This document shows, piece after piece, positions 3,973-6,401 of a stretch of DNA of 64,000 nucleotides. The number at the start of each line of letters is the position of its first letter. Position 1 is the first letter of the stretch. Position numbers and translations under genes: made by a program. The DNA comes from Alphaproteobacteria bacterium (lineage in GTDB: Bacteria; Pseudomonadota; Alphaproteobacteria; Rs-D84): contig JAWPOE010000008.1 in NCBI GenBank assembly GCA_033345195.1, positions 181,048 through 245,047 on the forward strand. The letters run 5' to 3'. Under the pieces are notes generated by a model. It was not told the DNA's origin and did not search any database. It saw only the letters and a list, made by a program, of their open reading frames with translations.

Positions 3973-4046
3973 GCCCTAATAGTCTAGTGGTAAAACACGT
4001 CCTTGGTAAGGACGAGTCGCAAGTCCGATTCTTGCTTAGGGCACCA
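3973..4046 (+). tRNA. tRNA-Thr(GGT)
   Basis: GCCCTAA/TTAGGGC acceptor stem; CGTCC-TTGGTAA-GGACG anticodon arm; ACCA end. T-loop is TCCGATT. Confidence 0.9.
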
Positions 4047-4160
4047 TCCGCTTTCGCTTACGCTGCAGCGAGATTGGTTTCGCAGAAAGCAAGTGAAGGT
4101 GCGGGGTTAGGGAAACGGATGTCTCGCTGTAATGAACGAAGAGAATGAAAGCGGGCAGAA
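4047..4160 (+). other. nested-hairpin leader between tRNA-Thr and the GIY-YIG gene
   Basis: 4047-4055 pairs with 4147-4155, and 4064-4074 pairs with 4121-4131, with G-T wobbles on the + strand. Confidence 0.6.
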
Positions 4161-4400
4161 ATGTTTTATGTCTATATTTTACAAAGTATAAATTTTCAAG
4201 AACGTTTTTATGTCGGTTATACGGCTGATTTGAAAAAACGGTTGCGGGAACATAATGATGGGCGTTCTGTGCATACTAATAAATTTAGGCCGTGGTGTTT
4301 GTGTGGATATGTCGCGTTTGATAGTGAAGAAAAAGCGCAAAAGTTTGAAAAATATCTTAAAACAGGCAATGGGCGAATTTTTCAGAAAAAGTTTTTTTAG
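4161..4400 (+). CDS. small stand-alone GIY-YIG endonuclease
   Basis: FYVYIL...FYVGYT..LKKRLREHN...EKAQKFEKYLK; 79 aa. Confidence 0.9.
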   Translation: MFYVYILQSINFQERFYVGYTADLKKRLREHNDGRSVHTNKFRPWCLCGYVAFDSEEKAQKFEKYLKTGNGRIFQKKFF

Positions 4401-4460
4401 GCTTGGATTTTTGTTGATTTTGTGATTTTTATAAATTAATATCTATTACATTACAGGTGT

Positions 4461-4600
4461 GGGTGCGTTGAAGTGACTAACAACCACTGAGTGGTCATAG
4501 CTGTATATAAAAAGTTATAAATCAGGGTGGCACCGCGCAGCCATTTGACTTGCGCCCCTGAAATTTAACATTAATGTGGGTGCCGAAAATCCAAATCTTT
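4461..4600 (+). promoter_or_regulatory. T-box riboswitch-like leader (Asn/Asp) upstream of aspS
   Basis: T-box AAATCAGGGTGGCACCGCG. Antiterminator CAGGG/CCCTG plus 7-nt bulge TGGCACC plus GCGCA/TGCGC. Short Stem I with GA motifs at 4465-4492; Stem III-like hairpin ATAGCT/AGTTAT. Confidence 0.75.
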
Positions 4601-4631
4601 TTCGTTGCCCGATATAAAAAAGGGACCAAAA

Positions 4632-6401
4632 ATGTTATCTTTGAAATCAAAGTATAGAACACATACATGTGGCGAATTAAATACATCAAATGTTGGTGCG
4701 GTTGTGACATTGTCAGGCTGGGTTCATCGTAAACGTGACCATGGCGCGTTATTGTTTGTCGATTTGCGCGATAATTATGGTATTACCCAGGTTGTGTTTG
4801 ATGGTGGAAACGAGGCGTTGGAAAAAGTGCGCCCGGAATCTGTTATTAAGGTGACTGGGACTGTTGTTGCACGTGATGCGGCGGCGGTTAATGATAAAAT
4901 CCCAACCGGGGGAATCGAAATCCAAGCAGATAAATTTGAAGTTTTAACAAACTGTGATGTTTTGCCATTCCAGGTGTTCGGTGATGATGATTCTGTTGCA
5001 GAAGATTTGCGTTTGAAACATCGTTATATCGACCTGCGTCGTGAATCGTTGCATAACAACATTTTAATGCGCAATCGCATTATTAAGTTTATGCGTGATA
5101 AAATGTGGGATATGGGATTTTCGGAATTCCAAACACCGGTCTTGACCGCGTCCAGTCCAGAAGGTGCGCGTGACTTTATCGTCCCCAGTCGTAATCATCA
5201 TGGCATGTTCTATGCATTGCCCCAGGCACCACAGCAGTTTAAGCAGATTCTGCAAATCGCAGGATTTGATAGATATTTCCAGATTGCGCCATGTTTCCGT
5301 GACGAAGATTTGCGTGCAGACAGATTGCTGGAATTCTATCAGTTGGATATGGAAATGTCGTTTGTTGACCTGCCGGATATTCAGGCGGTTGGTAATGAAC
5401 TGATGCCGGCAATGATACGCGAATTTGTTCCAGATGCAATTATCGCCGAAGAAATTCCACATATTCCATTTGATGAAGCGATGTTGAAATATGGGTCTGA
5501 TAAACCAGATTTGCGTAATCCAATTGTTATCAGCGATGTGACAGATGTTTTCCGTGGGTCTGATTTTGGTATCTTTGCAAATGCAATTGAAAACGGCAGT
5601 GTTGTTCGTGCAATTCCTGCGCCAAATTCATCTGATAAACCACGTTCTTGGTTTGATAAACTGGGTGATTATGCGGTCAAAGAATTGGGATTGGGCGGAT
5701 TGGGCTATATCGTCTTTGCTGATGAAGCCAAGGGTCCAGTTGCCAAAAAATTAGATGCAGAACGTATTGCAAAACTGCGTGAAATCGCAGGTGATAATTC
5801 ATCGTTGTTCTTTGTGTGTGACGTGGCAGATTCTGCGGCCAAGGCAGCAGGTAAACTGCGTACCAAGTTGGGCGAAGATTTGGGATTAATTAATCCAAAA
5901 GAATTTCGTCTGTGCTGGATTGAATCGTTCCCATTCTTTGAAGCGGACGAAGAATCGCCAACAGGTATCGCGTTTACGCATAATCCATTTTCATACCCGA
6001 TGGCGACATTGGAAGAATTGTCAACGAAAAACCCATTGGAAATCAAGGCTGCACAATTTGACATGGTGTTAAATGGTGCCGAAATTTGCAGTGGTGGTTT
6101 GCGCAACTATAACCCAGATGTGATGGTTAAATGCTTTGAAATCACGGGGTATAGTGAAGATATCGTCAAAGAAAAATTTGGTGGTATGTACACTGCGTTC
6201 AAATACGGTGCACCACCGCACGGTGGATGTGCGTTCGGTATCGATCGATTGGTGCAAATCATGTTGGCAGAACCAAATTTGCGCGGGGTGGTTGCATTCC
6301 CAACAAATCAGCGTGGCCAGGATTTAATGCTGGGGGCGCCGACAAATGTGACGGAACAGCAATTACGCGAAGTGCATATTCAGGTTCGCAAAAAGAACTA
6401 A
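4632..6401 (+). CDS. aspS: aspartate--tRNA(Asp/Asn) ligase, likely non-discriminating
   Basis: YRTHTCG, RKRDHG (His typical of ND-AspRS), FYALPQAPQQFKQ, CFRDED, PPHGG.AFGIDR. Confidence 0.97.
   Translation: MLSLKSKYRTHTCGELNTSNVGAVVTLSGWVHRKRDHGALLFVDLRDNYGITQVVFDGGNEALEKVRPESVIKVTGTVVARDAAAVNDKIPTGGIEIQADKFEVLTNCDVLPFQVFGDDDSVAEDLRLKHRYIDLRRESLHNNILMRNRIIKFMRDKMWDMGFSEFQTPVLTASSPEGARDFIVPSRNHHGMFYALPQAPQQFKQILQIAGFDRYFQIAPCFRDEDLRADRLLEFYQLDMEMSFVDLPDIQAVGNELMPAMIREFVPDAIIAEEIPHIPFDEAMLKYGSDKPDLRNPIVISDVTDVFRGSDFGIFANAIENGSVVRAIPAPNSSDKPRSWFDKLGDYAVKELGLGGLGYIVFADEAKGPVAKKLDAERIAKLREIAGDNSSLFFVCDVADSAAKAAGKLRTKLGEDLGLINPKEFRLCWIESFPFFEADEESPTGIAFTHNPFSYPMATLEELSTKNPLEIKAAQFDMVLNGAEICSGGLRNYNPDVMVKCFEITGYSEDIVKEKFGGMYTAFKYGAPPHGGCAFGIDRLVQIMLAEPNLRGVVAFPTNQRGQDLMLGAPTNVTEQQLREVHIQVRKKN

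Follow-up and report, generated by a model that had tools for sequence, protein, structure and literature searches.

The window analysed here is a stretch of 64,000 nucleotides (nt) of contig JAWPOE010000008.1 from an Alphaproteobacteria bacterium. On its forward strand it carries aspS (positions 4632-6401), which encodes a bacterial-type aspartyl-tRNA synthetase (AspRS) of 589 residues (NF001750, 736.7 bits for a cut-off of 443), and the subject of this work is the leader of that gene. The comparison of leader sequences described below confirmed that positions 4452-4560 correspond to the tRNA-binding part of a minimal T-box riboswitch. Downstream lie a candidate expression platform and the ribosome binding site AAGGGACC (4620-4627), placed, with the aspS start codon ATG (4632-4634), from the sequence and the list of open reading frames (ORFs); the A-rich run and the GGG of this site are kept in all aligned leaders.

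In the minimum free energy (MFE) fold of positions 4440-4640, an interrupted Stem I (4452-4505) precedes the T-box helix and a further hairpin at about 4574-4614. The energy of this fold is ordinary for its composition (z = -0.55), and folding energy alone proves nothing. Stem I is built of two lower helices (4452-4456 paired with 4501-4505, and 4458-4462 with 4495-4499), a C-stem (4464-4466 with 4491-4493) and, above it, a stretch (4467-4490) with the sequence pattern of a K-turn (GA motif) and an upper helix: a GUU bulge (4467-4469), G4470-A4471 opposite G4489-A4490, and AGUG (4472-4475) paired with CACU (4485-4488). Among 35 aligned leaders the 5' U-G-A and the 3' A of the K-turn are invariant, its 3' G is nearly invariant and the flanking helix covaries; judged from these sequences, a K-turn is present at the base of Stem I. 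Changes on both sides of a pair were seen across relatives in all five C-stem pairs and in three of the four upper-helix pairs. A preliminary description of this DNA, made from its letters alone, had proposed a Stem I at 4465-4492 (GC-GTT-GA-AGTG-[ACTAACAAC]-CACT-GA-GT). The sequence was as given, but the stem had been drawn too short, its real extent being 4452-4505. The Stem III-like hairpin that the same description placed, without coordinates, before the T-box helix was not supported: 4491-4505 is the 3' strand of lower Stem I, and 4506-4522 is unpaired, with no covarying hairpin.

Stem I closes in a 9-nt terminal loop ACUAACAAC (4476-4484), delimited from the leader alignment, in which the triplet AAC (4479-4481), a codon for Asn, is followed by a conserved purine, A4482. 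The linker between Stem I and the T-box helix (4506-4522) is single-stranded and A-rich, and contains a nearly invariant AAG at 4512-4514 (at least 90% conservation). This AAG may be the counterpart of the RAG motif, which in known T-boxes contacts the tRNA 3' end or its terminal A (PMC11297988; this and the other papers given by number are cited for the accessible part of their text). The T-box discriminator itself (4523-4560), placed by alignment to RF00230, consists of helix A1 (4523-4527/4556-4560), the bulge UGGCACC (4528-4534) and helix A2 (4535-4540/4549-4555). Its sequence AGGGUGGNACCGCG folds as A1 and A2 around the 7-nt bulge, and 4522-4560 aligned to the model at high posterior probability. 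The coordinates first proposed for this core, CAGGG 4523-4527 with CCCTG 4556-4560, TGGCACC 4528-4534, and GCGCA 4535-4539 with TGCGC 4551-4555, were exact. Among relatives A1 pairs in 100% of the alignment cells and A2 in 95%, and two to three pairs in each change on both sides.

Rfam, used at its gathering threshold, found four tRNAs only in the window and no T-box. With E-value reporting, the T-box model RF00230 matched 4384-4562 at 27.3 bits (E = 2.2e-4 for 351 bases; gathering score 93), nearly all of the score coming from the T-box helix and 78 Stem I model positions being deleted; on the whole genome its sole match was the aspS leader, at 32.4 bits (E = 6.6e-6). This search, which the preliminary description had called for, matched the T-box helix at 27-32 bits but stayed below the gathering score. 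The bare 10-mer GGGTGGNACC occurs four times in the genome, against six times for the reversed control; because the control is at least as frequent, the 10-mer alone is no evidence, and the evidence is the conserved structure. The other genomic copies of GGGTGGCACC (C3:25116, C8:168229 and C8:233743) were matched by neither RF00230 nor the leader model described next, and were rejected as chance occurrences.

The 35 leaders were aligned with MAFFT and compared with one named structure of four helices (C-stem, upper Stem I helix, A1 and A2) comprising 20 pairs. The paired positions were complementary in 96.3% of cells, and 12 of the 20 pairs changed on both sides, a result matched by none of 500 shuffles; controls in which the structure was slid along the same alignment gave 37-58% pairing. 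Compensatory changes were seen in all four helices. The motif and the pairings are conserved in the aspS leaders of relatives, and the T-box identity first proposed from a single sequence holds as a conserved, covarying structure. A covariance model built from this alignment, R1, had one strong match in the genome that carries the window (88.3 bits; runner-up 14.3). It also matched in 106 of the 107 genomes of the same genus and in 12 of the 14 genomes of other genera in the family. Matches in other families were few and weak, with 2 of 4, 1 of 19, 0 of 1, 2 of 2 and 1 of 3 genomes in five of them (f2 to f6). When 75 matches (68 distinct rows) were aligned by fitting to R1, an alignment biased towards the model, 95.7% of cells paired and 14 of the 20 pairs changed on both sides.

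The position of the element is likewise conserved. The T-box core lies 100-140 nt upstream of the aspS start in all 24 same-genus loci fetched. Among five loci from other families of the order it was found in three (L031, L033 and L034) and was absent in L032; L035 ends at a contig edge. In a further set of 80 named aspS loci, NGGTGGNACC was present within 500 nt upstream of the gene in 13, namely 12 close relatives and L066, a metagenome-assembled genome (MAG) from deer colon, and in none of the other 67.

The element lacks four domains found in other T-boxes. The elbow-binding platform of distal Stem I, made of an AG bulge and the distal loop, is absent, since Stem I closes in the 9-nt specifier loop after 4 base pairs (bp). 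Stem II with its S-turn, whose absence had been noted at the outset, the IIA/B pseudoknot (F-box) and Stem III are also absent, only the 17 unpaired nt of 4506-4522 separating Stem I from A1. In relatives whose leader starts a few bases 3' of a tRNA-Thr gene, there is no room for a further domain upstream. Full-size aspS T-boxes were found in L066, L031, L033 and L034, in a genome of another family of the class (G267, locus L166) and in two members of the family itself (L178 and L179). They have a short Stem I, then an AGUA S-turn stem, the F-box pseudoknot CGGGNAAGCCCGUNA and Stem III; where scored with RF00230 they reach 41-56 bits, and L066 aligns Stem II, IIA/B and Stem III to that model. 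These T-boxes of gut Alphaproteobacteria resemble the window element in their gene, in a GAC or AAC specifier carried by a short Stem I and in the UGGCACC bulge, but keep the Stem II S-turn, the F-box pseudoknot and Stem III. Because relatives at the level of the order and of the class carry these domains, their absence from the window reflects a genuine loss; by sequence, the full-size relatives look like the ancestral form, from which the window type would have lost about 60 nt.

In relatives of the order a second T-box of the same clan precedes a gene for an archaeal-type aspartate--tRNA(Asn) ligase of about 440 residues (NF003483, 452 and 429 bits). Such second-synthetase T-boxes carry GAC or AAC and were found in L172 (G147), L175 (G153), L180 and L188 (G036), L182 (G055) and L184 (G113). 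Genome G113 combines a strong match to the minimal aspS-type model with a full-size T-box on the second synthetase.

Sherwood et al. reportedly described in 2015 ultrashort T-boxes in ileS leaders of Actinobacteria that control translation. The window element shares with these a short Stem I, a specifier in the terminal loop, the lack of an elbow platform, the same T-box helix and bulge and, presumably, control at the ribosome binding site rather than by a terminator. The ultrashort ileS T-boxes keep Stem II (S-turn), the IIA/B pseudoknot and Stem III, none of which is present in the window leader; they are actinobacterial and belong to ileS and tRNA-Ile, whereas the window element is alphaproteobacterial and belongs to aspS and to Asn or Asp codons. 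In Clostridium acetobutylicum, an Asn-specific T-box on the tRNA-dependent asparagine pathway is said to have been described by Saad et al. (2012, 2013). It is said to couple a non-discriminating AspRS to tRNA-Asn, as proposed below for the window, but to be a full-size, transcriptional element of a Firmicute. All ultrashort T-boxes are described as regulating ileS and reading tRNA-Ile (bioRxiv 10.1101/2023.02.28.530422, accessible part). In short-Stem-I translational T-boxes, Stem II and IIA/B compensate for the elbow contact that is lost; Stem I is obligatory, and the only T-boxes that do without Stem II and IIA/B are the glycine ones, whose Stem I is long (PMC7583486, PMC11297988). The glyQS T-boxes of Bacillus and relatives are, like the window element, naturally devoid of Stem II and of the IIA/B pseudoknot (PMC11297988, PMC7583486). 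They differ from it by a long Stem I with a double T-loop elbow platform, by Stem III, by an intrinsic terminator and by their reliance on a strong GGC:GCC codon-anticodon pair. The window element is a T-box by its core features but, because it joins both known reductions, lies outside every described architectural class.

The triplet AAC at 4479-4481 is supported as the specifier codon by its variation among relatives. At loop positions 4-6 of 67 unique leaders, GAC was found in 55 and AAC in 11 (one leader was left unparsed and reads GAC by eye), and position 7 was always a purine (A or G); the specifier role given to AAC in the preliminary description is in line with this restriction. AAC is read in the window, in L011, L020, L027 and L040 and in most leaders of the sister genera. 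Because the two codons are scattered among leaders whose AspRS is 74-90% identical to that of the window, the switch between them probably happened more than once. Loop positions 7-9 were considered as a second codon and rejected as a specifier, since they are often AAC or GAC but elsewhere AAA, ACC, GCC or AAU, and lack the following purine. Most loops read NNU-GAC-AAC, an Asp codon followed by an Asn codon, and several AAC-type loops read AAC-GAC; from these sequences, a dual reading of both triplets is conceivable.

The tRNA-Asp(GTC) of the same genome ends in G73-CCA, as does tRNA-Asn(GTT) from four same-genus genomes, and both ends match the UGGC of the bulge, in keeping with the G73 discriminator first predicted for it. 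Since both tRNAs carry G73, UGGC suits either of them, and this fit, together with an enzyme that must serve both, supports a non-discriminating AspRS. No match to asnS above cut-off was found in the genome, where AspRS and a frame of 521 residues, presumed from sequence to be the lysyl-tRNA synthetase, gave weak cross-matches only, and gatA and gatB, of the indirect asparagine pathway, were both found. Because of this gene content the enzyme is probably non-discriminating, as had been proposed earlier from an RDHG histidine, which we take to be a sign of such enzymes.

The T-box is not followed by a recognizable terminator. In 4040-4700 the only intrinsic terminator predicted lies at 4052-4073, just 3' of a tRNA-Thr gene; no hairpin with a U-run was found between 4560 and 4632, and none was seen by eye in the 35 aligned leaders. 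Because no terminator follows, control is probably exerted at translation initiation, an expectation already voiced in the preliminary description. Two elements downstream of the T-box are of interest in this respect. Element X, GGGUGCCG (4578-4585), was recognized by its conservation and complementarity. Its segment GGUGCCG (4579-4585) could pair with the full 7-nt bulge and terminates in GCCR, like the GCCA of the tRNA 3' end, while the overlapping GGGUGC (4578-4583) could also pair with GCGCCC (4552-4557), the T-box 3' strand. Of the 67 unique leaders, 65 have the core GGUG[CU][CU], and in 64 of these 65 the next base is a purine; about 0.05 such 7-mers are expected by chance per 75 nt of this genome. 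The duplex of X with the bulge has a mean energy of -11.7 kcal/mol and that with the T-box 3' strand one of -10.6 kcal/mol, the bulge being clearly favoured where X starts with U. Element Y, CGUUGCCC (4603-4610), is variable and forms the 3' side of the X:Y hairpin seen in the MFE fold (about 4574-4614). In forced-pairing folds, Y can pair with the Shine-Dalgarno (SD) region once X is engaged elsewhere. Because Y varies freely while X is nearly invariant, X must be constrained by something other than Y.

Leaders of sister genera with the same minimal Stem I show a different arrangement, in which X is the SD region itself (AAAGGGUGCCAAAAUG and variants, in seven leaders). Pairing of the bulge with the SD is the MFE state of RNAfold in five of the six such leaders folded, and it beats the T-box fold in all seven (-19.2 versus -14.8 kcal/mol). 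States that leave the T-box 5' strand free, as in canonical strand exchange, reach only -7.9 kcal/mol. In the genus of the window, an insertion of about 45 nt brought Y and a second ribosome binding site, AAAGGGACC.

The segment from the T-box to the AUG was folded either with the T-box fold or with the bulge:X pairing forced. In the window leader, the predicted probability that the SD GGG is unpaired fell from 0.95 to 0.04, Y (4604-4610) pairing with 4622-4626 in the forced state. In the 58 leaders with the X:Y layout the mean fell from 0.75 to 0.13, and 47 of the 58 switched. A simpler procedure, whole-leader folding with X blocked, was discarded: it showed no consistent effect on the SD (means 0.30 versus 0.37), as upstream sequence mispaired with it.

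The best explanation of these results is a minimal aspS T-box that senses tRNA-Asn through a translational switch built on X and the bulge, to which we assign a probability of about 0.6; the switching mechanism itself we infer from models. Uncharged tRNA-Asn, a substrate of the presumably non-discriminating AspRS, would use its anticodon to pair with AAC and its 3' end to pair with the bulge, which would raise aspS expression; most relatives would read tRNA-Asp instead, via GAC. X and the tRNA 3' end would be rivals for the bulge. When tRNA is bound, X would pair with Y and leave the ribosome binding site open; without tRNA, X would dock on the bulge, and Y together with the freed CCCU (4556-4559) would cover the ribosome binding site. 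Such a switch would need either a pseudoknot that keeps A1 or a kinetic route in which X captures the bulge before Y has been transcribed.

Several observations weigh against this explanation. The Rfam score is about a third of the gathering score; tRNA binding and an effect of the leader on expression we infer from sequence, and the transcription start is predicted. In the genus of the window, the T-box with the X:Y hairpin is predicted to be stabler than the bulge:X state (mean -30.1 versus -26.5 kcal/mol; -47.6 versus -42.0 in the window leader), bulge:X winning in only 6 of 58 leaders; the off state is thus not the thermodynamic default, unless an A1-keeping pseudoknot, which RNAfold cannot score, or kinetic folding comes into play. 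Shuffled spacers still leave the SD unpaired at only 0.37, compared with 0.13 observed (lower than shuffled in 53 of 58 leaders), so composition and the freed CCCU strand account for part of the relay. The real SD, GGGACC, has no complementarity of its own to the bulge. As X and both its possible partners (the bulge and the T-box 3' strand) show no variation, covariation cannot pick between them; the comparative case for bulge:X is an indirect one. Known T-boxes without elbow contact depend on Stem II (PMC11297988, PMC7583486), and the window element would have to manage with two tRNA contacts. Finally, no tRNA-Asn gene was found in the 8-contig assembly by ARAGORN, pattern search or blastn. 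A tRNA-Asn-type pattern was matched in 20 of 24 same-genus genomes, often at contig ends. ARAGORN likewise found no tRNA-Thr(TGT) among the 43 tRNAs of the assembly, four pairs of whose contigs have identical ends (C1/C2, C3/C6, C5/C6 and C7/C8). As identical ends indicate that the assembly breaks at repeats, the tRNA-Asn(GTT) and tRNA-Thr(TGT) genes may sit in gaps, and this is probably the case for tRNA-Asn.

Three candidate sequestrations of the ribosome binding site lie within 2-6 kcal/mol of the MFE. One of them, pairing of CCCU (4556-4559, in the A1 3' strand) with AGGG (4621-4624), underlies the alternative that survives best, although we judge it rather unlikely: a canonical translational switch of the same T-box, in which CCCU would act as an anti-SD without tRNA and the X:Y hairpin would be a mere spacer holding CCCU and AGGG close to each other. 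This pairing had been proposed in the preliminary description; AGGG is indeed present, and forcing the pairing costs just 2 kcal/mol (-45.6 versus -47.6 for the MFE). RNAfold also picked pairings of this type in three of the six same-genus leaders folded (L012, L014 and L020), and in full-size leaders, by eye, the SD is complementary to the A1 3' strand (AAGGA to UCCUU in L182 and L184, UAAGG to CCUUA in L031). However, it comprises 4 bp only, and A1 has changed to CCCGA in L023, L028, L029, L039 and L040 with no matching change in the SD flank. Sister-genus states that free the T-box 5' strand are weak (-7.9 versus -14.8 kcal/mol, as given above). Nor does this alternative explain why 4578-4585 is conserved, that is, why X is nearly invariant while Y varies, or why X is the SD in the sister genera.

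It is less probable still that the same T-box has an output other than translation initiation, such as a non-canonical (for example Rho-dependent) attenuation, or mRNA decay or processing at A/U-rich stretches. Most known T-boxes control transcription, the SD is open in the fold predicted as the default, which would not be expected of a translational off-switch, and in several relatives the leader lies directly 3' of tRNA-Thr, so that processing takes place nearby. The lack of a hairpin with a U-run between 4560 and 4632 and the presence of an A-run 3' of the X:Y hairpin argue against such an output, and short-Stem-I T-boxes are described as the translational kind (PMC7583486). Lastly, a decayed or chance T-box-like sequence devoid of regulatory role, or a loop triplet that is not a specifier, would fit the subthreshold Rfam score, the four missing domains and the frequency of the 10-mer, but is close to refuted by a single copy at the same gene in 106 of 107 genus genomes, by compensatory changes in all four helices and by a specifier limited to the codons of the enzyme's two tRNA substrates.

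The tRNA-Asn-sensing switch with X and the bulge can be extended into a bolder proposal, which we offer tentatively. The window element would be the smallest natural T-box (about 100 nt), touching its tRNA at the anticodon and the 3' end only, and its platform would work by molecular mimicry: GGUGCCR would fill the whole 7-nt bulge in cis, ending in GCCR like the tRNA, so that a tRNA 3' end and the ribosome binding site element of the message would compete for one docking site. In the genus of the window, the duplicated ribosome binding site and the variable Y would relay this competition to the real start site. A ribosome binding site element complementary to the bulge suggests a switching principle unlike strand exchange. 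The window form has neither of the accessory contacts held to be necessary, the elbow platform or Stem II with IIA/B; if its leader binds tRNA, it would lower the known minimum for an mRNA to recognize a tRNA specifically and provide a compact part for engineered tRNA sensors. The recurrent change between GAC and AAC across relatives is a natural experiment in the choice of the substrate that is monitored for a dual-specificity synthetase.

To our knowledge, T-boxes are treated as a Gram-positive device. With RF00230 at E <= 0.001, only one of 149 genomes from other alphaproteobacterial families was matched (G267, before aspS, with an AAC specifier), and none of 150 other genomes sampled from the phylum; the positive controls, Bacillus, Lactococcus, Corynebacterium, Thermus and Deinococcus, were all matched. 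No report of an alphaproteobacterial T-box was found in the openly searchable literature, subscription papers and supplements (e.g. the TBDB phylum tables) being left aside. In the accessible part of a 2008 survey, proteobacterial T-boxes are given only at leuA of Geobacter and Pelobacter; like the window element these lie outside the Gram-positive phyla, but they have the typical elements, are delta-proteobacterial and precede a biosynthetic gene (PMC2494555). The short-Stem-I model of TBDB is described as applied to Actinobacteria only (PMC7778990).

The genome that holds the window comprises 898 kb in 8 contigs and is 97% complete. The nearest aspS loci in named records are from gut and rumen MAGs titled 'uncultured Alphaproteobacteria bacterium', two being titled 'Candidatus Enterousia sp.', in agreement with the alphaproteobacterial host suspected at first; ordinary Rhodospirillales and similar groups come next, at 53-58% identity. 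Enterousia is placed in order Rs-D84, with genomes below 1 Mb that lack amino-acid synthesis, and riboswitches are not mentioned in the accessible part of this paper on Enterousia-type bacteria (PMC12306168).

A putative sigma-70-like promoter was read by eye at 4414-4442 (-35 TTGATT 4414-4419, 17-nt spacer, -10 TAATAT 4437-4442). It fits 8 of 12 positions and is not listed by the promoter scan, whose threshold is 9 of 12; pairs of the form TTGNNN-17-TANNNT were seen by eye at the equivalent place in several relatives' leaders, and in others only a few bases lie between the end of tRNA-Thr and Stem I. This candidate promoter would start the RNA near 4449, just 5' of Stem I. Upstream, an ORF of 79 residues of the GIY-YIG type (PF01541, E = 3.2e-15; 4161-4400, forward strand) lies between tRNA-Thr (3973-4046) and the leader. 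Because tRNA-Thr directly precedes the leader in several relatives, the GIY-YIG ORF looks like an insertion in the lineage of the window.

Some leaders depart from the common layout. A pairing of the A2 loop with the downstream linker was considered and rejected as a general feature (on average -1.53 kcal/mol for cognate and -1.32 for non-cognate pairs; -1.0 in the window leader), and this complementarity is absent in the window. In one subclade (L015, L024, L025, L027, L043 and L044) the A2 loop AAAUCUUA is perfectly complementary to UAAGAUUU, just 3' of the T-box; the pairing comprises 8 bp in L015, L024, L043 and L044, and L175 has a different 7-bp pair in equivalent places. The same-genus leader L019 (genome G003), a natural deletion variant, has no X:Y hairpin, its T-box being followed by about 13 nt, then by AAAAAAGGGACC and the start codon. 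L015 and L023 carry an extra GC-rich hairpin of about 30 nt (e.g. UCCCAC...GUGGGA) between Y and the ribosome binding site.

Metatranscriptome X2 contains contigs over 4050-4539 and 4510-4622, and X19 contains pieces up to 4525; such contigs show no start, strand or level, and DNA may be present in these libraries. The X2 contigs leave a hole at 4652-4745, from which no inference was drawn. In one metagenome contig of the DNA run X1, 4546 is followed directly by 4614, 67 bases being skipped; its probable source is a related strain in which the stretch from the T-box loop to the ribosome binding site is shorter or otherwise different.

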